This document shows positions 3,774 to 47,281 of a stretch of 64,000 nucleotides of DNA, in pieces. The notes under the pieces are model-generated. The model saw only the letters and a list, made by a program, of their open reading frames with translations, did no database searches and was not told the DNA's origin. Position 1 is the first letter of the stretch. Each line of letters opens with the position of its first letter. Position numbers and translations under genes: made by a program. This DNA comes from a virus, in IMG/VR virus record IMGVR_UViG_3300009151_000034, positions 64,001 through 128,000 of that record. One strand, given 5' to 3'.

Positions 3774-3966
3774 ACTCTCTTAAATTCTCATTAACTTGCC
3801 AAAATGAAAAGTGGTTAGCTTGTTCAGTTATAGAATATTCTTTATTATAAGGAATCCAAATTCGTTCCCTTATTTTTTCATTCTGTGTGTTTCTTGTCAT
3901 TTTCCATAACGTATCTTTTATATCATCATGTATTTTATATGCAAAAATACTTTTCTTACGCATCAT
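3736..3966 (-). CDS. hypothetical protein coupled to last QV mini-gene; possibly a degenerate member
   Basis: Start overlaps EDLNDA tail of 3956..4156; WQVNENL near C-terminus. Confidence 0.45.
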   Translation of the reverse strand: MMRKKSIFAYKIHDDIKDTLWKMTRNTQNEKIRERIWIPYNKEYSITEQANHFSFWQVNENLREYEGRYEKSISYF

Positions 3967-4156
3967 TTAAATCTTCCCTGACTTGATCCCAGATTTGATA
4001 GCTGACTTGATCTCCGACTTGATCTCCGACTTGATCGTGGACTTGACACCTGACTTGAATACCGACTTGATAGCTGACTTGATCCTCGGCTTGTTCACAG
4101 ACTTGATACCAGACTTGCCCGCTGACTTGTTTATTAATTTGTTTTTTAACAGTCAT
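3956..4156 (-). CDS. QV-tetrapeptide repeat mini-protein (array 1)
   Basis: MTVKKQ...(QVxx)n...EDLNDA, 66 aa. Confidence 0.7.
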   Translation of the reverse strand: MTVKKQINKQVSGQVWYQVCEQAEDQVSYQVGIQVRCQVHDQVGDQVGDQVSYQIWDQVREDLNDA

Positions 4157-4346
4157 CTAAATCTTCCCTGACTTGACTACTGACTTGACTCCTGACTTGA
4201 CTACTGACTTGACTCCTGACTTGAATACCAACTTGATTCCAGACTTGATCCTGGATTTGATCCCAGACTTGATAGCTGACTTGATCCCAGACTTGATCCC
4301 TGACTTGATAGCTGACTTGATCCCAGATTTGTTTTTTAACGGTCAT
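4146..4346 (-). CDS. QV-tetrapeptide repeat mini-protein (array 1)
   Basis: MTVKKQ...(QVxx)n...EDLDDC, 66 aa. Confidence 0.7.
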   Translation of the reverse strand: MTVKKQIWDQVSYQVRDQVWDQVSYQVWDQIQDQVWNQVGIQVRSQVSSQVRSQVSSQVREDLDDC

Positions 4347-4512
4347 CTAAATCTTCCCTGACTTGACTATTGACTTGATCCCCGGCTTGATCCCCGACAT
4401 GATCCCAGACTTGTTCACAGACTTGATACCAGACTTGATGCAAGACTTGATGCAAGACTTGATCCCCGGCTTGTTCACAGACTTGTTTACTAATTTGTTT
4501 TTTAACGGTCAT
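4336..4512 (-). CDS. QV-tetrapeptide repeat mini-protein (array 1; below ORF-track cutoff)
   Basis: Manual translation MTVKKQISKQVCEQAGDQVLHQVLHQVWYQVCEQVWDHVGDQAGDQVNSQVREDLDDR, 58 aa. Confidence 0.7.
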   Translation of the reverse strand: MTVKKQISKQVCEQAGDQVLHQVLHQVWYQVCEQVWDHVGDQAGDQVNSQVREDLDDR

Positions 4513-4702
4513 CTAAATCTTCCCTGACTTGATCCCAGACTTGATCCCAGACTTGATTTGTGATTTGAACCCTGACTTGATCCCCGACTTGATCCCTGAC
4601 TTGACCACAGACTTGATGCCTGACTTGATTACCGACTTGATACCTGACTTGTTCCCAGGCTTGATCCCAGATTTGATACCTGACTTGTTTTTTAACGGTC
4701 AT
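4502..4702 (-). CDS. QV-tetrapeptide repeat mini-protein (array 1)
   Basis: MTVKKQ...(QVxx)n...EDLDDR, 66 aa. Confidence 0.7.
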   Translation of the reverse strand: MTVKKQVRYQIWDQAWEQVRYQVGNQVRHQVCGQVRDQVGDQVRVQITNQVWDQVWDQVREDLDDR

Positions 4703-4886
4703 CTAAATCTTCCAAATTTTCCAATAATTGATTTTTAGCATATATTTTATTAATAACTACCATCGAAGAAAGAACCATATGCCTAGTATAAACAATAGTC
4801 TGTATTTGTCGATTTACACATATTGGTTCTTGCATATGCTTAAGAACATCATTATAAATTATTTTTTTGATTTTAGATAATACCAT
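4692..4886 (-). CDS. non-repetitive mini-protein sharing the EDLDDR junction (array 1 leader)
   Basis: MVLSKIKK...LEDLDDR, 64 aa from ATG 4886. Confidence 0.5.
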   Translation of the reverse strand: MVLSKIKKIIYNDVLKHMQEPICVNRQIQTIVYTRHMVLSSMVVINKIYAKNQLLENLEDLDDR

Positions 4887-4968: not shown

Positions 4969-5850
4969 TTAGGTTCGGAACTCCAAATCCCGTAGTTCGT
5001 TTTCCTCAAACCCATATGTCCATGCGTTGGCTTGCAGGGCAGTTTTCATTTCAGGTGGCACAGGAATTGCGAATGACCTTCCAGTCCCACAAAGAACTTG
5101 CAAGAACTTTTCGGTGCCAATGTCGGGGATATCAACCTCTAGAAGTGTTCCGATCATTGGGTCTTCGTCAACATCGATAACCTTAGAATTCAATTCCTTA
5201 AGAATATGAACCCAACCAAGAATTTCACAAGCAACGCGGCGAAGTTCTAGATTATCTTGCTTCAATGCCTCTTTAGCTGTTAGAGACTTCTTATCAGCAA
5301 TCCAGTGCCAACGCTTACGATCAAGACGAACACCATGCCAAGCATATACTTTAGTGTCATCCATATATTCGATAGCAGGTCCATCTTCGCAATGTAGACG
5401 ATTCTGATCATCGAACTTGATAAGCATTGGGCGTTCCTGAATAATAGCCTCATCCTCATCAACCCAGGCCCAACCACCTTCCTTGGCATATTCAACTAGA
5501 CCGTTAATGATGCTGAGATCGATACCACAAACATCATTAAAATAAGAATAAAAGCTAATCCAAGAACTGTCCTGAGAACCGAAAATGTTTCCATTCATAA
5601 AGGAATTTACATCACCTTCGGGACGAATTGACTTGTAAATCTTATAGGCATCGTGTGGACCCTTAGCGTAATACATTTTGCTAGGTGCCTTAAGATTTTG
5701 CGTAGTATAACAAAGTGCAAGGGCCTTCTTAGCCTTAGCAAAATCAATAACATCGGTATTAAGACCAATCTTCAACCACTTGGCAAGATGCATAGGAATC
5801 ATTGCTTCTTGTTCTGGGGTTAGCTTATCGATCTTATTTGTAGCGGCCAT
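4969..5850 (-). CDS. DUF6745-like protein
   Basis: KLTPEQEA...KWLKIGL N-terminus, GSQDSSWISFY, RLHCEDGPAIEY..AWHGV, NLELRR motifs. Confidence 0.75.
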   Translation of the reverse strand: MAATNKIDKLTPEQEAMIPMHLAKWLKIGLNTDVIDFAKAKKALALCYTTQNLKAPSKMYYAKGPHDAYKIYKSIRPEGDVNSFMNGNIFGSQDSSWISFYSYFNDVCGIDLSIINGLVEYAKEGGWAWVDEDEAIIQERPMLIKFDDQNRLHCEDGPAIEYMDDTKVYAWHGVRLDRKRWHWIADKKSLTAKEALKQDNLELRRVACEILGWVHILKELNSKVIDVDEDPMIGTLLEVDIPDIGTEKFLQVLCGTGRSFAIPVPPEMKTALQANAWTYGFEENELRDLEFRT

Positions 5851-5877: not shown

Positions 5878-6240
5878 TTAGTCAGCAGCCTTACGAAAAC
5901 CTTCTGGTGTATACTCTCGCTGGCGACGAATCATATACTTTCCAGGAGGAACTAGAATGCTTTCGTGTGTATCATGTGATCGTAGATGATCGATTTTAGT
6001 ATCTTCTTTTACTAGAAGAAACATTTTATACAAATCAATGTTCTGTGTATTGCTTTTGTTAGTCACAGGTTCGAAAGCCTCAACATATTCAGCTTCCATT
6101 ACGTGATTATGCATAGTTTCAGAATGAGCAACCACGATATGACCATTCTCTGCATTTACAGGAACGATATTTTCTGGGAACTCGTTGATACGCACAATGA
6201 TAAAATCACCTTGCGCTGCCATATTTTTAAGAATCTTCAT
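5878..6240 (-). CDS. His-motif small protein of the type usually found beside DUF6745 genes
   Basis: QGD, HSETMHNH, HDTH, PGKYMIRRQREY motifs. Confidence 0.65.
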   Translation of the reverse strand: MKILKNMAAQGDFIIVRINEFPENIVPVNAENGHIVVAHSETMHNHVMEAEYVEAFEPVTNKSNTQNIDLYKMFLLVKEDTKIDHLRSHDTHESILVPPGKYMIRRQREYTPEGFRKAAD

Positions 6241-41699: not shown

Positions 41700-42197
41700 T
41701 CAATAAAAAATCGGATTGGTGTTGACAATGGTATCAAAACCTTCATCGAGGGTAGGCATCTCAAGATTTTCCATCATATTCTTCATAACATGTCCGGGGA
41801 TAGTTTTACCGGGGCGACTATTAAGACGATCCGAAAGAATATCATTTTTGGGCGTATTAAAAAACACAGCGATCTTATAATATTCTTCTGGAATAGACTT
41901 AATTTTATTCTTACGGGTTTTGGTCGATGTGTTAGTCTGATCCCAAACGATATCTTTTTTATAATGAATCGCTTCCCGTAAAGTTTCGTTCATGAGTTTT
42001 GTTGCAGCATCTATCATCATATGAAAACATTCGTCATATGTTTTTTCCTGCATCTTAGCCCAGGCGTCGATTGTGTGATCTGTTCCAATCAATGCATAAT
42101 TAGGACGGAAGATATGTTTATTCTTTTCGATCCATGTAGACTTACCAGAACATGGAACACCAACCATCATATAAAGAAACGGACGGGTCTTATACAT
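41700..42197 (-). CDS. P-loop polynucleotide-kinase-like protein (AAA_33)
   Basis: GVPCSGKST, VWDQTN. Confidence 0.85.
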   Translation of the reverse strand: MYKTRPFLYMMVGVPCSGKSTWIEKNKHIFRPNYALIGTDHTIDAWAKMQEKTYDECFHMMIDAATKLMNETLREAIHYKKDIVWDQTNTSTKTRKNKIKSIPEEYYKIAVFFNTPKNDILSDRLNSRPGKTIPGHVMKNMMENLEMPTLDEGFDTIVNTNPIFY

Positions 42198-42209
42198 TTT
42201 TAATCTCCA

Positions 42210-43388
42210 TTAATCGATAACAACAGAGTTCCATCGAGCAGTCTTTAGAATGCCTCGGGTCTTTTCAAACTGAGTATTTGAACTGAGATGGATATACACG
42301 TTTTGCTTCACCATGTCAAGAGAAATTCCTTCCTCTTTTTTATCCCATACTTTAAAAATAAGACCACGCATCGTAGGCTCTGAATCCTGTGTTTTAATAG
42401 CAAAATTCTTGCGGGAAATACCAGAAGCGGCAATCAACATAAGTTCGCTGTTGATGTTGCCCCAGAAATCATAGATATCCTTCCACACTGCATCCTGAAA
42501 GTCAACCAATTTCTTCTTATCGTTATCGGAAAGAAGTGGCATCAGATCATCAGTCTTTTCGTCAATGATAAGACCAACAACATCACGTTCATTCTCTAGC
42601 ATACTTTTGGCACGGTGTAAAGAGATATAGGTATCGGCCTTGACCTTCACCATATGACCATCATCAAAACGGATTACAATACCTTCTCTGTCTTCCCATT
42701 TGCGGACGCTTTCGGTATTTTCTTCGAATGTTTTAGATGCATCATGAGACTCAACACAAGATACTACTGGAATATCAAAAAACGAAGCAAAAGACGATAA
42801 TGCAGTATGGTTAAGATATCGTCCAGTGAAATTACTACGAACGGCAGTCAAAATAAGTTGGTCTTTTGGGTAGTCAACCACAATACGTTGCTGGCGGCTG
42901 CACCATTCAAAAATAGGCGTCATACCAATATTAATCATATATTCAGCGGCTTTTTGATACTGAGGGTTATTAGCAACAAATACTTCTGCTTGCATAGAAA
43001 CTTCGGTCACGCCCATCTTTGTTCCCCAGCGGATATGACCACGAATAGGAATAGGACGGATCATAGAACCATCAAGTTTTTCTAAAAAACGGTGCGACTC
43101 TGTAATATTAAGATCAGTTACATCGGCTCGTTCGCCATAATTAAAAAATTTGTGATATGGGCGTGAAATAACTTCTCCGGTTTCTGTATCAAAAATAAGC
43201 CCACGAAGTTCACGGCGAATAGCAGAAGCACGATCAATCACGGGAGGAAATGTATCAGACCCCATACGAACATAATTTACGACTGTGTAACTATCTTTTT
43301 CCACAATGATAAAATTATGGTCATCTTTAATCACTTCACGGACTTCTGCCAACGTGATGTTAATCGGAAACTCATAATGTAGGGTCAT
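42210..43388 (-). CDS. rnlA: RNA ligase 1
   Basis: RELRGLIF, PYHKFFN, EKLDGS, FEW, EGIVI, KVK. Confidence 0.92.
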   Translation of the reverse strand: MTLHYEFPINITLAEVREVIKDDHNFIIVEKDSYTVVNYVRMGSDTFPPVIDRASAIRRELRGLIFDTETGEVISRPYHKFFNYGERADVTDLNITESHRFLEKLDGSMIRPIPIRGHIRWGTKMGVTEVSMQAEVFVANNPQYQKAAEYMINIGMTPIFEWCSRQQRIVVDYPKDQLILTAVRSNFTGRYLNHTALSSFASFFDIPVVSCVESHDASKTFEENTESVRKWEDREGIVIRFDDGHMVKVKADTYISLHRAKSMLENERDVVGLIIDEKTDDLMPLLSDNDKKKLVDFQDAVWKDIYDFWGNINSELMLIAASGISRKNFAIKTQDSEPTMRGLIFKVWDKKEEGISLDMVKQNVYIHLSSNTQFEKTRGILKTARWNSVVID

Positions 43389-43445
43389 AACTTTTTATCC
43401 TCTCTTTACCTGATTAAAACATATTATCAGGTTTATTAGTCCATG

Positions 43446-43748
43446 TCAAGCTAAATCTTCCTGGACTTGATTATCGACTTGATCCCAGGCTTGATCCCAG
43501 ACTTGATTATCGACTTGATCCCAGACTTGATCCCAGACTTGACTCCTGACTTGATCCCAAACTTGATCCATGACTTGTTTTTTGACTTGATCCCAGACTT
43601 GATCCCTGACTTGATGTAGGACTTGATACTGGGTTCGATTTCTGACTTGAACATTAACTTGATCGCTGACTTTATCCCAGACTTGATTCCAGACTTGAAT
43701 TTTAGCTTGATAACTAATTTGATTACTAATTTGATTTTTAACAGTCAT
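43446..43748 (-). CDS. QV-tetrapeptide repeat protein (array 2)
   Basis: MTVKNQ...(QVxx)n...EDLA, 100 aa. Confidence 0.7.
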   Translation of the reverse strand: MTVKNQISNQISYQAKIQVWNQVWDKVSDQVNVQVRNRTQYQVLHQVRDQVWDQVKKQVMDQVWDQVRSQVWDQVWDQVDNQVWDQAWDQVDNQVQEDLA

Positions 43749-43914
43749 CTAAATCTTCCCTGACTTGATCCCAGACTTGATCTCTGACTTGAATACCAAC
43801 TTGATTCCAGACTTGTTTCCAGACTTGTTGCATGACTTGATCTCTGACTTTATCACAAACTTGAACCCCGACTTTATCATAAACTTTATCACAGACTTGA
43901 ATGTTATCAGTCAT
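43738..43914 (-). CDS. QV-tetrapeptide repeat mini-protein (array 2; not in ORF track)
   Basis: MTDNIQVCDKVYDKVGVQVCDKVRDQVMQQVWKQVWNQVGIQVRDQVWDQVREDLDDC, 58 aa. Confidence 0.7.
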   Translation of the reverse strand: MTDNIQVCDKVYDKVGVQVCDKVRDQVMQQVWKQVWNQVGIQVRDQVWDQVREDLDDC

Positions 43915-44083
43915 TTAAATCTTCCCAGACTTGATCGTTGACTTGATCCCTGACTTGAATACCAACTTGATTCCAGACTTGTTTCCAGGCTTGATGTAGG
44001 ACTTGCCTGCTGACTTGTTGATTGTCAACTTGATCCCAGGCTTGAATTTTAGCTTGATAACTAATTTGTTTTTTAACAGTCAT
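43907..44083 (-). CDS. QV-tetrapeptide repeat mini-protein (array 2; not in ORF track)
   Basis: MTVKKQISYQAKIQAWDQVDNQQVSRQVLHQAWKQVWNQVGIQVRDQVNDQVWEDLND, 58 aa. Confidence 0.7.
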   Translation of the reverse strand: MTVKKQISYQAKIQAWDQVDNQQVSRQVLHQAWKQVWNQVGIQVRDQVNDQVWEDLND

Positions 44084-44267
44084 CTAAATCTTCCTGGACT
44101 TGATCCCGGATTTGATCCCTGACTTGATCGCTGACTTGTTCCCTGACTTGATTCCAGACTTGATGTAGGACTTGATACTGGGTTCGATTTCTGACTTGAA
44201 CATTAACTTGATCGCTGACTTGTTCCCTGACTTGATCATGAATATCATAATTAAATTTATTATACAT
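44073..44267 (-). CDS. QV-tetrapeptide repeat mini-protein (array 2)
   Basis: MYNKFNYDIHDQVREQV...EDLDDC, 64 aa. Confidence 0.65.
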   Translation of the reverse strand: MYNKFNYDIHDQVREQVSDQVNVQVRNRTQYQVLHQVWNQVREQVSDQVRDQIRDQVQEDLDDC

Positions 44268-44421
44268 CTTCGTCGGCGGATAGAACATTTTTGACTGTAT
44301 CTTTAATAACTTTCAAAAGACCTATAGAAGCAAAATGGCGCATAGCCTCATCATCAAGATCAAGTGTTAGAGTAGCACCACCATCATCATGATCCTGGCA
44401 GTCAACAACTTCAATTTTCAT
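44260..44421 (-). CDS. small hypothetical protein
   Basis: MKIEVVDCQDHDDGGATLTLDLD..., 53 aa, GGGAG RBS. Confidence 0.55.
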   Translation of the reverse strand: MKIEVVDCQDHDDGGATLTLDLDDEAMRHFASIGLLKVIKDTVKNVLSADEDV

Positions 44422-44422
44422 T

Positions 44423-44782
44423 TCACAATCTCCCTAAACATTCTTTAAATTCTTCTGGTAAAATTACATTGTTTGGCACATTCTTAAACATCCATGCGAT
44501 TTCGTGAGGCTTATAACCAGAGAGGCCAGTCCCGACAGCAGTAAGAATGAACCGTAGATCAGGATTATCATACGAAAATTGGATAAAGATGTCAACATAT
44601 TTTTTGATCTCTGTTAATGGTAAAGTATTGATTTTATTATCTTTTGTCGGGATTGCATAGCTGTTACCCTGTAGACCAACACCCTGACCATAGATAGCGC
44701 CATGATACTTCTTAGCAAAAAGTGCGGCACCTTTACCGTGCCTTCCGGCTGTGTTGGAACCGAAAGTGAAAATATCACGCAT
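44423..44782 (-). CDS. macrodomain-like phage protein
   Basis: FTFGSNTAGRHGKGAA, SYAIPTK, TAVGTGLSG. Confidence 0.75.
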   Translation of the reverse strand: MRDIFTFGSNTAGRHGKGAALFAKKYHGAIYGQGVGLQGNSYAIPTKDNKINTLPLTEIKKYVDIFIQFSYDNPDLRFILTAVGTGLSGYKPHEIAWMFKNVPNNVILPEEFKECLGRL

Positions 44783-44951
44783 AATTTAAATCCTCTTTTA
44801 CTTGATTTATGACTTGAACCCCGATTTGACCATAAACTTGATCCCAGACTTGATCCCTGACTTGTTCATAGACTTGTTCATAGACTTGATCCCCGGCTTG
44901 ACCCCCGACCTGATCCCTGACTTGATACTTGACTTGTTTTTTAACGGTCAT
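44775..44951 (-). CDS. QV-tetrapeptide repeat mini-protein (not in ORF track)
   Basis: MTVKKQVKYQVRDQVGGQAGDQVYEQVYEQVRDQVWDQVYGQIGVQVINQVKEDLNYA, 58 aa. Confidence 0.7.
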   Translation of the reverse strand: MTVKKQVKYQVRDQVGGQAGDQVYEQVYEQVRDQVWDQVYGQIGVQVINQVKEDLNYA

Positions 44952-45123
44952 TTAAATCTTCCCAGACTTGACTTGAGGCTTTATCAATAATTTCACGGTT
45001 GACTTTATAACTGACCGGATCATTGGCTTGGCCCCAGATTTCATATTTGGCTTGATTACAAATATGATCATAGAATTGAATGTTGACTTGTTTTGTGATT
45101 TTAATTTTATCTACAATAGTCAT
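44941..45123 (-). CDS. diverged QV-family mini-protein
   Basis: Residual 4-aa period, ends QVWEDLNDR. Confidence 0.6.
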   Translation of the reverse strand: MTIVDKIKITKQVNIQFYDHICNQAKYEIWGQANDPVSYKVNREIIDKASSQVWEDLNDR

Positions 45124-45302
45124 AGAAACTTTAAATCTTCATCCAATTGAAATCTTAGATGCACCTTATATTGATTAAATACTATATCTTCAACTTCTCC
45201 CCATATAACAAAAGAAATGTGTTCGGCATAATTTAAGTCCCAAATTTTTCGAAAACTTTCCCTATCTGTGTATGAAGCCATAATTTTATTTTTAACGGTC
45301 AT
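45120..45302 (-). CDS. diverged QV-family mini-protein
   Basis: Starts MTVKNK, ends QLDEDLKFL. Confidence 0.55.
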   Translation of the reverse strand: MTVKNKIMASYTDRESFRKIWDLNYAEHISFVIWGEVEDIVFNQYKVHLRFQLDEDLKFL

Positions 45303-45477
45303 TTAAATCTTCACCAATTTGATTCCAGGTAAACCACCACATATCACCCACAGAACCATCTGCTGGCAATAACATAGTAATTTCATAAGGATAAACATCA
45401 CTATAATATTTTTCTTGACATCGATAACGACAATCCCGCCATACATCTTTTTTTATTTTATCTATAAGTTTATTCAT
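45292..45477 (-). CDS. diverged QV-family mini-protein
   Basis: Ends WNQIGEDLNDR. Confidence 0.55.
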   Translation of the reverse strand: MNKLIDKIKKDVWRDCRYRCQEKYYSDVYPYEITMLLPADGSVGDMWWFTWNQIGEDLNDR

Positions 45478-45508
45478 AAATTCACCTGACCCAATTTATA
45501 ATAATTTA

Positions 45509-45585
45509 TGGTAGACGGAGCCGGGTATGATCCGACATAATGACCGTTATGAGCGACCCGCATTTTCCATTTATGCTATCCGTCC
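45509..45585 (-). tRNA. tRNA-Met/Ile2(CAT) with atypical T-loop
   Basis: CTCATAA loop, GGACGGA/TCCGTCT acceptor, CCA; T-loop ATCATAC. Confidence 0.8.
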
Positions 45586-45602
45586 AAATACCAAGTGCAG
45601 GA

Positions 45603-45953
45603 TTACTTTTTAAGTTTCTTAGTTTCATCCTCAATCCACGCTTTAAGCAGATTAATACCAGGATCAACAACTCCTTGGACTTTTTCATCATTCAAAAAAG
45701 AATTTGTATAACTAGTAGCCACCATCACCATCATCGTCTTTTGATCAGGAATTAAAATTGATAATCCTGAACAAACACACACTACGATAAAAATACGTTT
45801 GCCGATATTAATAATATCTGTTTCATTTTCAAGTAAACCAAAAACGATTGCAAATGAAGATAAAATTGCTCCAAAAATCCCCACGATAACACAGAGACCA
45901 TGAATATTATTCAAAACATTATTCAAATATAAAATATAGGGTAGAGAACTCAT
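45603..45953 (-). CDS. membrane protein
   Basis: Two TM segments, IPDQKTM. Confidence 0.6.
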   Translation of the reverse strand: MSSLPYILYLNNVLNNIHGLCVIVGIFGAILSSFAIVFGLLENETDIINIGKRIFIVVCVCSGLSILIPDQKTMMVMVATSYTNSFLNDEKVQGVVDPGINLLKAWIEDETKKLKK

Positions 45954-45954
45954 A

Positions 45955-46401
45955 TCAAAAATCTCCTGGTGCTACTTGAGCACATATAATACCATTTGCA
46001 CGCCAAGCATCTACAACTCTATTTCTGTCGTCAAATGCAATAAGAGGATTGAAACCGTCTGCCCGAATTTGTTCAAGAAGTTCAATTTTAACAACTGCAT
46101 CATCACGATAGTCGCCCTTCTTACGCATATAAAGGTTCTTAGGTGGAAGAACATGATGCCGTAGCCATTGCTCAGTTTTTTCGCGGTAAATTTCTTCACG
46201 CCCTGAGCAGAACACGATATCCCAACCAGAGTGCCAAAGAGAAACCACAACATCGATAACCGGCTGAATTGGTAAATCATTCTCTACATTTGCATAAAAT
46301 GCTTTCCAATTTTTTGGGTTAGATTGAATCCATGAACGGCGATGTTCTAGGTTGGCAATAGTTCCATCTAAATCACAAATTATTGATTTTTTTACGTGCA
46401 T
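45955..46401 (-). CDS. HAD 3'-phosphatase (PseT phosphatase-domain-like)
   Basis: CDLDGT, SGR, MRKKGDYRDD.VVK, FDDR, QVAPGDF. Confidence 0.9.
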   Translation of the reverse strand: MHVKKSIICDLDGTIANLEHRRSWIQSNPKNWKAFYANVENDLPIQPVIDVVVSLWHSGWDIVFCSGREEIYREKTEQWLRHHVLPPKNLYMRKKGDYRDDAVVKIELLEQIRADGFNPLIAFDDRNRVVDAWRANGIICAQVAPGDF

Positions 46402-46423
46402 ATTAAAATCTCCATAATAAAAG

Positions 46424-46621
46424 TTAATCTTTCCAGTTACCGATAGGATCAAAACCAGAATACTCACCTAGAAAATGTTTTTTGGCAATTTCTGCTTTTT
46501 CTTTGGTTTCAAATTCTACTACCTTAGAAAATACTATCTGATCATTTTCAATTTGAGTCATACAAACAAAGAACAAACCACTAGCGGTTTCAAAAACATC
46601 AGCGTTACGTTTATCAGCCAT
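46424..46621 (-). CDS. hypothetical protein
   Basis: AAGGAG RBS, TTGACA promoter upstream. Confidence 0.55.
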   Translation of the reverse strand: MADKRNADVFETASGLFFVCMTQIENDQIVFSKVVEFETKEKAEIAKKHFLGEYSGFDPIGNWKD

Positions 46622-46675
46622 GGTATATCTCCTTGATCACATGCATAATATACTACTCAGAAACCTTGGTGTCAA

Positions 46676-47281
46676 CTACTTTTTATTATGATTGACAATT
46701 TTTTTGCCTGGGGTTCCTAACATGATTTTAGTATGCCATGCCCCACCAATCTTACGCTGATAAGAATGATGTTTATATTCTGGATGTGCCATAATTTCGG
46801 GATCATCGTCTGGTGGCCTTCTAATTTCATCATCTGAATCTAAATGATGATGCACATGATGATATGGAACAATATGCTTGGATAGCTTTTCGCTACCAAC
46901 ATGTTTTTTCATACTAGCCAATAAATTAGAAGATTGTTCACCATATGCTCTGCCGGTTGTAAGATCAGCAACAACCATTTTACCTGCTGCTCTTTTGCCT
47001 TCTTTTGAACCATCAGAAGCAACCGCAACCAGTTTACGACCATTCTTATCTTTATATAAGACGGCGGCAGTAATTTTTCCGCCTTCTTTTTTAAGTTTCC
47101 ACATAGGAATATTTTTCTTCATATCTTCTGTGTCATGAAACCCAGAACCATGAATCCCACCGATTTCTTTATATGACTTATCCAACATATCTTTAACATG
47201 CTGGGCGTGTTCTGATTTTCTAGGATCATCGCCTATTAAATTTACAAAACGCTCTGATATGAATTTGGAAAATGAAATCAT
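46676..47281 (-). CDS. His-rich protein with capsid-targeting-like N-terminus
   Basis: MISFSKFISE start with GGAG RBS, CATAAATA upstream. Confidence 0.6.
   Translation of the reverse strand: MISFSKFISERFVNLIGDDPRKSEHAQHVKDMLDKSYKEIGGIHGSGFHDTEDMKKNIPMWKLKKEGGKITAAVLYKDKNGRKLVAVASDGSKEGKRAAGKMVVADLTTGRAYGEQSSNLLASMKKHVGSEKLSKHIVPYHHVHHHLDSDDEIRRPPDDDPEIMAHPEYKHHSYQRKIGGAWHTKIMLGTPGKKIVNHNKK

Follow-up and report, generated by a model that had tools for sequence, protein, structure and literature searches.

Two distant arrays of QV mini-genes in a T4-like freshwater phage share exact DNA blocks and pair with a repeat-less DUF6745 gene

The stretch of DNA analyzed here, hereafter the window, comprises 64,000 nucleotides (nt; positions 64,001 to 128,000) of the IMG/VR virus record IMGVR_UViG_3300009151_000034, and is part of a complete phage genome of 149,097 bp, T4-like and with direct terminal repeats, which was found in freshwater metagenomes. 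Positions 43446 to 45477 of the window hold a chain of ten small genes (array 2) that includes a set of mini-genes built from four-residue units, each consisting of Gln, Val, and two variable residues (QV units). Four further QV mini-genes are located 39 kb away (array 1). We propose that array 2 probably serves as a second depot for a single family of paralogous, translated mini-genes tied to the protein DUF6745. The proposal is based on exact DNA blocks shared by the two arrays, a common gene plan, the co-occurrence of such arrays with repeat-less DUF6745 genes in other phages, and a predicted complex. Coordinates are window positions unless another contig is named, and all genes of both arrays lie on the minus strand.

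RESULTS

Arrays 1 and 2 share exact DNA blocks

A first, sequence-only reading of 43446-44951 had listed five QV genes of 100, 58, 58, 64, and 58 amino acids (aa) and several peptide blocks recurring among them and in array 1. All five genes are present, every block named corresponds to an exact DNA match (65, 39, 33, 32, or 28 nt; Table 1), and the one-codon insertion (CAA, read as NQQV) in 43907-44083 is indeed there and in frame. For a quantitative assessment, the nine clear QV genes of the two arrays were cut into 125 units of 12 nt, which were shuffled 500 times each, either pooled or within their gene. Shared blocks were both longer and more numerous than under these nulls. The longest match spans 65 nt, compared to null means of 30.7 (pooled) and 30.4 nt (within gene) and null maxima of 54 and 52 nt, respectively. 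Ten gene pairs have at least 28 nt in common, against 1.64 (pooled) or 1.46 (within gene) expected, and no shuffle reached 10. Similarly, four inter-array pairs share at least 31 nt (0.32 expected; 4 was reached in 0/1000 shuffles), and the 32-nt trio around the rare GTT-GGT-ATT unit was kept in all three genes in none of 20,000 shuffles. Unit permutation within one diagonal yielded P values of 0.05 and 0.08, a test with little power at 12 units, and the pooled nulls were used in its place.

The mini-genes follow a common plan

QV mini-genes consist of a head (M-T-V-K-K-Q), 12 to 14 four-residue units, and a tail (E-D-L-D-D), adding up to ∼58 aa. Exactly 12 units occur in five of the nine clear QV genes and 14 units in three; the QV genes of array 2 contain 12, 12, 12, 12, and 23. 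Per-codon entropy is 0.1 to 0.6 bits at the Q and V codons and 0.8 to 1.75 bits at the variable ones. The start codon of each gene in the chain sits within the last codons of the preceding gene, with overlaps of 8 to 11 nt. A 21-nt junction sequence accompanies these overlaps; it occurs in nine copies genome-wide, all confined to arrays 1 and 2, and is phage specific, having no exact match in IMG/VR. The earlier assertion that the five genes share the same junction holds for some of them. A2a ends early (EDLA, TGA), A2c terminates on a TGA variant, and A2e ends with NYA, its stop overlapping the ATG of the A1S_2505-family gene that is nested between the two sub-arrays of array 2. The plan also has exceptions in A2a, which lacks the full tail, and in A2d, which lacks the head and can be read either as 64 aa from the ATG overlapping the upstream stop or, by the open reading frame finder, as 71 aa from 44288. 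Array 2 further extends beyond the region first described, because the junction is also present in 44941-45123, 45120-45302, and 45292-45477.

Both arrays open with a non-repeat leader gene of ∼61 to 64 aa with a K-I-K-K head and an EDL-D/N-DR tail. These leaders (45292-45477 and 4695-4886) are weakly similar from end to end (27% identity; BLASTP E value of 0.008 in a single comparison), which hints that the arrays may have been seeded by a segmental copy. Searches of Pfam, PHROGs, NCBIfam, and PADLOC assigned no family to the mini-proteins, which gave only weak low-complexity matches (DUF4816, 25 bits, below the cutoff), nor to the product of the non-QV gene 44260-44421. No third QV locus was found, as a genome-wide scan returned QV genes in arrays 1 and 2 only.

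The junctions of array 2 contain no promoter-like or terminator-like sites, and no exact T4-type late promoter (TATAAATA) was found near either array. The only strong promoter-like site follows the last gene of array 2: a sigma-70-like match on the minus strand (43421-43449; TTGACA, 17 nt, TAATAT, with an extended TG) lying between array 2 and the ligase gene. The match is to the consensus alone, and the count of such sites in the region does not exceed that of its shuffles. The A2a stop codon falls within its TTGACA hexamer, which may explain the shortened A2a tail.

QV arrays accompany repeat-less DUF6745 genes in other phages

IMG/VR was scanned for a pattern of six CARGT words at 12-nt spacing, which retrieved at least 119 stretches. 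These are of two kinds: long DUF6745 proteins with 14 to 63 internal QV repeats, and tandem overlapping mini-genes. The latter were found in at least 11 other contigs (L061, L062, L068, L087, L107, L130, L138, L146, L164, L173, and L176), with 11 genes in L107, 11 in L138, and 7 in L164. In L107 (5702-10946) and L138 (727-7084), the eleven QV mini-genes flank a repeat-less DUF6745 gene, and those of L138 lie on both strands. Alignment of 33 mini-proteins from 11 phages revealed a conserved head (M-x-x-V-K/R-x-Q-V), followed by the repeats and an acidic-hydrophobic tail. Some of these phages use other codons for the repeat (CAG; in some, GTG, GTT, or GTA).

One DUF6745 gene was present in 9 of the 10 mini-gene contigs examined, the tenth being a fragment that is 63% complete. 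It lacks the repeat in all nine contigs having both, and likewise in the genome studied here, whose 149 kb contain a single PF20530 match (4969-5850) without a QV tract. In other phages, by contrast, the QV repeat is in frame inside DUF6745 and continuous with both of its domains. The mini-proteins themselves fail the PF20530 model, which covers residues 87 to 286 of the core protein and leaves the repeat outside.

Dispersed arrays are found in the complete genomes G006 and G007 and also in G004, where exact blocks of 54 to 67 nt link QV genes 5.5 to 6.5 kb or more apart. A distant, block-sharing second array is therefore a recurring trait of the family and not a peculiarity of this phage. Array 2 lies farther from its DUF6745 gene (39 kb) than the other measured cases, which range from 0 to ∼26 kb (up to 18 kb in G007 and 16 to 26 kb in G006). 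Adjacency to DUF6745 is thus common but not obligatory, since distant arrays also occur in G007 and G006.

Other searches were less productive. Megablast of window positions 42000-47000 against GenBank phages gave zero matches; tblastn of A2b against the same phages, with the low-complexity filter on, retrieved a mycobacterial prophage only; and neither the A1S_2505 protein, the DUF6745 protein by itself, nor the exact junction brought up a relative in IMG/VR scans. A literature search returned nothing published that mentions DUF6745 or a phage tetrapeptide-repeat array.

Two observations concern window gene 5878-6240 (phrog_27831). Metagenomic protein P0039 (108 aa) starts like its product and then continues into a QV tract; it may represent a fusion or frameshifted read-through of this partner gene and a QV mini-gene. 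In addition, gp175 and gp174 of Microcystis phage Ma-LMM01 (L188, NC_008562; 1662-3193) are the same pair as window genes 5878-6240 and 4969-5850, with a Lys/Glu-rich linker replacing the QV tract in the DUF6745 protein gp174. Both Ma-LMM01 genes, gp174 and the upstream gp175, are middle genes of cluster B5, like the uracil-DNA glycosylase gene (PMC5780444). Middle expression fits an intracellular, non-structural role.

A mini-protein is predicted to dock on DUF6745

AlphaFold2 (AF2) modeling of A2b from the 33-sequence alignment predicted a single helix (residues 3 to 57; mean predicted local distance difference test [pLDDT] of 87.7), and the DUF6745 core also folds with confidence (pLDDT of 90). 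This core fold has no close counterpart among the structures searched: the best Foldseek match in the PDB had an E value of 0.076, a wide VIA-align search gave a best Z score of 4.8 over one sub-domain only, and the Atlas search produced no usable match. Among viral proteins, the core is matched best by the DUF6745 protein of Ma-LMM01. Modeled together, DUF6745 and A2b scored 0.82, compared to 0.11 for the best of three controls. This mark was reached by 58 of 80 solved complexes and by 2 of 110 mismatched pairs, counts that apply here only approximately because custom alignments were used. Runs agreed in at least 52% of contacts, the partner pLDDT was at least 79, and there is no solved structure for the model to recall. 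The lowest-error contacts involve V35, V39, V43, V47, V51, and L55. In the N-terminal half of the helix, contacts recur at the Q/K-V positions with a period of 4, and the variable pairs are not among them. The model supports docking of A2b on the DUF6745 protein but does not show binding.

These data bear on the reading that the mini-genes are self-expanding repeat DNA, i.e., tolerated debris that became detached from the DUF6745 repeat and spread in plastic regions through slippage and recombination, with neither binding nor a library of products. We regard this as unlikely. The codons of the QV genes depart strongly from genomic usage and look like a mutational cloud centered on a single master unit; array 2 belongs to a lineage-specific insert, with part of it missing in a close relative; and both function and expression of the mini-genes are putative, all of which would suit such debris. 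However, starts, stops, overlaps, and the modal 12-unit length have been kept, and head and tail motifs are preserved as protein in phages that use different DNA. Furthermore, the DUF6745 found alongside the arrays is repeat-less throughout ten genomes, and the complex model stands clear of its controls.

Mosaic structure points to segmental exchange

The exact blocks carry silent markers, namely GTT in the QVGI and QVNV units, AGA for Arg, and CTA for Leu, which argues for identity by descent and not by convergent selection. Mismatches per 12-nt unit between A2b and A2c are 4, 6, 4, 4, 5, 3 and then 1, 0, 0, 1, 3, 1, with a random mean of 3.7; the edge of this block is sharp, and the divergence of its flank is at the level of random units. 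The 65-nt pair in A2a and A2d fades gradually instead (2, 1, 0, 0, 0, 0, 2, 2, 4, 1, 3, 5). A2c is itself a mosaic, sharing its head with A2a (28 nt) and its tail, from unit 7 on, with A2b (39 nt), whereas the middle of A2a equals the first half of A2d. The array-1 gene 4146-4346 has both the QVWN-QVGI-QVR block and a DDC tail in common with array 2. Altogether, the block partners of A2a, A2b, A2c, and A2d fit no single tree. Given the exact blocks with silent markers, the sharp A2b/A2c edge, and this tree conflict, segmental exchange within and between the loci, as the sequence-only reading had suggested, is the best reading of the data, in whichever direction the segments may have moved.

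Plain duplication and divergence offers a simpler history, in which array 2 would have been copied once from array-1 genes and the blocks would be their unmutated parts, with no later exchange. It is consistent with the 32-nt block beginning at nt 99 in both 4146-4346 and 43738-43914, with the weak likeness of the two leaders, and with A2a and A2d remaining below random divergence over ∼8 units, beyond the block. We nevertheless find it rather improbable, because same-diagonal flanks show 4.3 mismatches per unit (random, 3.7) next to blocks with zero, silent sites included; because the closest paralog changes along one and the same gene; and because the distant-locus block pattern repeats in another phage.

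On a smaller scale, local duplications of one or two units are frequent in the QV genes, e.g., QVRS-QVSS twice in 4146-4346, QISN/QISY in A2a, and QVYE twice in A2e. All length changes among these genes are multiples of 3, mostly of 12, and starts and stops are kept. The sole internal KK unit among the 125 directly follows unit 12 of A2a, and thus the point at which a gene of modal length would end, and resembles a canonical head (scar AAAAAACAAGTC, 43572-43583). Deletion of 22 nt of canonical junction joins the two frames of A2a exactly, from which we infer that this 100-aa gene originated by in-frame fusion of two mini-genes.

A protein product is favored over an incidental QV reading

The sequence-only reading had argued for selection on the protein from synonymous or conservative variants such as GTT, GCC, ATC, and AAA. 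This argument is weak, since the valine variants lie on transition paths from GTC and the codon usage is alien to the genome; its conclusion is only partly supported, and a protein product has better support from other evidence. The variants of the Val codon are GTT (10), GCC (8), ATC (7), ATT (5), GCT (2), ACC (2), and GTA (1). The first three are one transition away from GTC and the next three are two away, with the single GTA as the sole exception. GTC accounts for 80% of Val codons in the QV genes versus 13% in the genome (P = 4e-58), and AGG for 72% of Arg codons versus 5.7%; Ser is encoded by AGY (AGC or AGT) only. GTC also dominates repeat Val in unrelated phages with either CAA or CAG for Gln (497 of 648). 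In addition, the 68 distinct DNA units translate into 61 sense but only 44 antisense peptides, and W/R/G and D/N/Y swaps at variable sites amount to silent Pro and Ile changes on the antisense strand. A protein product on the sense strand nonetheless appears better supported, judging by the kept starts and stops, the in-frame length changes, the in-frame QV repeat within DUF6745, and the use of other codons elsewhere.

GATC sites occur at ∼24 per kb in the QV genes versus 3.6 genome-wide, a seven-fold excess that places 8% of them in 1.2% of the DNA. The excess traces to D-Q encoded as GAT-CAA and is absent from a phage that encodes D as GAC; the clustering of Dam sites is probably a by-product of this coding.

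That constraint acts on the nucleic acid or on an antisense frame of P-D-L-I repeats, with the QV reading incidental, is accordingly a very improbable alternative. The persistence of GTC (80% here, and 497/648 in other phages whatever their Gln codon), the antisense-silent swaps, and the GATC density would fit it. Conversely, three of nine genes have TAG stops in the antisense frame, which offers no ATG and points opposite to the surrounding genes; in relatives, the QV repeat shares one uninterrupted frame with DUF6745 domains; and GATC is not conserved where D is encoded by GAC. We thus discarded antisense P-D-L-I coding in view of its stops, lack of ATG, and wrong strand. A diversity-generating retroelement was ruled out as well: the complete genome contains no PF00078 reverse transcriptase, for which control genomes do match, and variation is not of the adenine-restricted type, given that the two adenines of CAA are fixed and variable positions take all four bases.

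Independent assemblies support the array, and a relative has a different gene number

Samples were compared on Logan assembled contigs, and the comparisons with runs X3 and X4 count only the covered parts of the array region. Contigs of three runs from different studies match the array-2 stretch exactly. A 425-nt contig of X3 spans 43391-43815 with 0 differences, covering all of A2a, the 65-nt block, and the fusion scar. Mis-assembly of repeats, by which the mosaic genes would be assembler chimeras, is hardly credible: exact repeats above the word size do collapse in short-read graphs, and the Logan contigs break within 43541-44207, but the X3 contig comes from a different sample and study, and other exact pieces in X1/X2 bridge the junctions at 43738-43748, 43907-43914, and 44073-44083. 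Contig joints in X1/X2 (43559 to 44064 and 43615 to 44064, with 30-nt sides) are ambiguous as variants, probably reflecting array-1 contigs placed on array 2, and were not used.

The exchange had been described as ongoing, which the data support only in part. In the three freshwater runs, all from 2017, the array-2 sequence is identical, with no listed variant inside the array; a difference in gene number was seen only in a ∼96%-identical relative. This relative was detected in run X4, a 2022 metagenome from another study. Its flanks are ∼96% identical to those of array 2, and 44820-45289 (∼470 nt, three mini-genes) is replaced by ∼60 nt; the lower sub-array aligns in short pieces only. The replacement is the sole sign of recent array-2 turnover in this data set. 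The relative also carries a 15-nt deletion at 45405.

Array 2 is inserted in an RNA-repair cassette

Array 2 is placed between genes for a phosphatase and a T4-type RNA ligase 1 (Table 1). In the nearest relatives by ligase (50% identity), only 42 nt separate the end of the phosphatase gene from the ligase gene, and a QV tract was found in none of 50 ligase loci. Array 2 and its neighbors back to 45953 therefore constitute a lineage-specific insert of ∼2.5 kb in a cassette that is otherwise conserved. The RNA-repair cassette across 41700-46467 is itself split into phosphatase, ligase, and kinase genes, which are contiguous or nearly so in relatives.

Table 1. Genes and shared DNA blocks of the QV arrays and neighboring genes (window coordinates)
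Feature	Position	Strand	Description
A2a, QV mini-gene	43446-43748	-	100 aa; 23 repeat units
A2b, QV mini-gene	43738-43914	-	58 aa; 12 units; N-terminal half of unusual KV units
A2c, QV mini-gene	43907-44083	-	58 aa; one-codon CAA insertion
A2d, QV mini-gene	44073-44267	-	64 aa; first gene of lower sub-array
Non-QV gene	44260-44421	-	53 aa; acidic tail (DEDV, stop) overlaps A2d start in the style of QV junctions
A1S_2505-family gene (phage non-structural protein by annotation)	44423-44782	-	119 aa; phrog_2072, E 3.5e-43; NF049995, E 1.9e-43
A2e, QV mini-gene	44775-44951	-	58 aa; 12 units
A2f, decayed QV mini-gene	44941-45123	-	60 aa; canonical tail and junction
Non-periodic gene	45120-45302	-	60 aa; QV repeat lost, MTVK head and EDL tail kept
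Array-2 leader gene	45292-45477	-	61 aa; non-repeat; canonical EDLNDR tail and junction
Array 1, four QV mini-genes	3956-4156, 4146-4346, 4336-4512, 4502-4702	-	Blocks and junction in common with array 2
DUF6745 gene, repeat-less	4969-5850	-	293 aa; PF20530, E 6.5e-29
65-nt block	43608-43672 = 44157-44221		A2a/A2d; exact
39-nt block	43784-43822 = 43950-43988		A2b/A2c; exact
33-nt block	4215-4247 = 43949-43981		Array-1 gene 4146-4346/A2c; exact
32-nt block	4216-4247 = 43784-43815		Array-1 gene 4146-4346/A2b; exact
28-nt ISYQAKIQ block	43694-43721 = 44041-44068		A2a/A2c; exact
Polynucleotide-kinase-phosphatase (PNKP)-type phosphatase gene	45955-46467		PF25109
T4-type RNA ligase 1 gene	42210-43388		PF09511
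AAA_33 kinase gene	41700-42197		Follows the ligase gene

DISCUSSION

If array 2 is a second depot of one mini-gene family, its history and operation could be envisaged as follows. The chain would probably be translated by coupling, each start codon lying within the tail of the preceding gene. Units would be gained and lost by slippage in a 12-nt register, and multi-unit blocks would move by homologous recombination or gene conversion among paralogs, within arrays and between arrays 39 kb apart, with the near-identical repeats and the 21-nt junction supplying the homology. T4-like phages recombine avidly on short homologies. Deletion of 22 nt at one junction would have fused two genes into the 100-aa A2a. 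Each product would be a single long helix, whose Q/V ladder and tail Leu could dock on the sole, repeat-less DUF6745 protein, while over the N-terminal half both variable residues of every unit would stay clear of the interface. The repeat that relatives carry in cis would here be detached and multiplied, so that one DUF6745 core might wear ∼ten faces. A more far-reaching proposal is that both arrays and their counterparts elsewhere form one recombining library of co-expressed helices that compete for a single DUF6745 core, combining a constant docking ladder with an exposed surface, reshuffled through unit slippage and conversion between loci, into a polymorphic recognition repertoire against variable host factors, e.g., defense proteins. 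Such a repertoire would be assembled out of detached repeat modules instead of a single variable gene. We put this forward as a possibility of which we are doubtful.

Several observations weigh against our interpretation. Expression of the mini-genes is a prediction, and the three samples showed no variant inside array 2. One block, that starting at nt 99 of both 4146-4346 and 43738-43914, fits plain descent too. The GTC/AGG/AGY usage points to constraint or homogenization at the nucleotide level, and variation among the 68 DNA units is more often silent on the antisense strand (44 peptides) than on the sense strand (61). Array 2 is also remote from the DUF6745 gene, lying 39 kb away in an unrelated cassette. 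As for binding, it is predicted by a model only, and the alignment for the core held forms with the fused cis repeat, which possibly guided placement of the helix. A straight helix in which Val recurs every four residues cannot hold the same side against a flat surface, and cis tracts reach 63 units, far beyond any groove.

Tiny genes without an assigned use abound in phage genomes; on the interpretation of array 2 as part of a DUF6745-tied family, one set of them gains a testable partner. The existence of a second, distant array sharing blocks with the first suggests that the evolving unit is the whole dispersed family and not one operon, and the finding of such arrays in many uncultured phages suggests that protein surfaces may be diversified in a general manner not described before. 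Should the predicted binding be true, it would provide the first functional handle on DUF6745, and the arrays would offer a natural setting in which to study how repeats drive recombination in T4-like phages.

The closest relatives of this system are the DUF6745 proteins with an internal QV tract (gene 38 of Mycobacterium phage prophiGD102-1; L059, L073, and L094), which contain the same four-residue repeat, variable at the same positions. In these proteins the tract sits where the DUF6745 protein of the window has a gap, after approximately residue 75. The repeat is part of one polypeptide there, whereas in the window phage it is distributed over ∼ten separate genes in two places. The mini-gene arrays of L062, L107, L130, L138, L146, L164, G004, G006, and G007 resemble arrays 1 and 2 in their overlapping starts and stops, head-repeat-tail plan, and repeat-less DUF6745, and also in occupying two or more loci per genome that have exact blocks in common. 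The window phage differs from them in its own junction sequence and in the location of array 2 within an RNA-repair cassette.

Among described systems, PeSLs of T4-type phages come closest in that small non-essential genes in plastic regions of T4-like genomes are bordered by short conserved sequences, at which recombination shuffles the modules (Arbiol et al. 2010, PMC2839356). However, a PeSL is an intergenic promoter with a stem-loop, whereas the array junction is part of the coding sequence, where stop and start overlap, and matches neither a promoter nor a terminator. PeSL cassettes were thus ruled out, as the genes overlap by 8 to 11 nt and no promoter- or terminator-like site occurs at the junctions. 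The mini-proteins also differ from pentapeptide-repeat proteins (PF00805) in their period of 4 residues (12 nt), not 5, and have no Pfam match. For comparison with the beta-helix fold of that family, there is the AF2 prediction of one alpha helix (residues 3 to 57).

A more distant analogy is offered by the highly internally conserved (HIC) repeats of the fungal NOD-like receptor (NLR) genes het-d and het-e, which reportedly consist of near-identical DNA units with few variable residues that are reshuffled among paralogs. Fungal HIC repeats are WD40, ANK, or TPR repeats of ∼30 to 40 residues inside large eukaryotic receptors, whereas QV units are 4 residues long and belong to free-standing 58-aa phage proteins. 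Finally, in silent-cassette antigenic variation (pilS/pilE of Neisseria and vls of Borrelia), dispersed partial variants swap segments by gene conversion. The pilS and vls cassettes are silent donors to one expression site; each QV gene, by contrast, comes with a start and a stop codon of its own, and its expression is probable.

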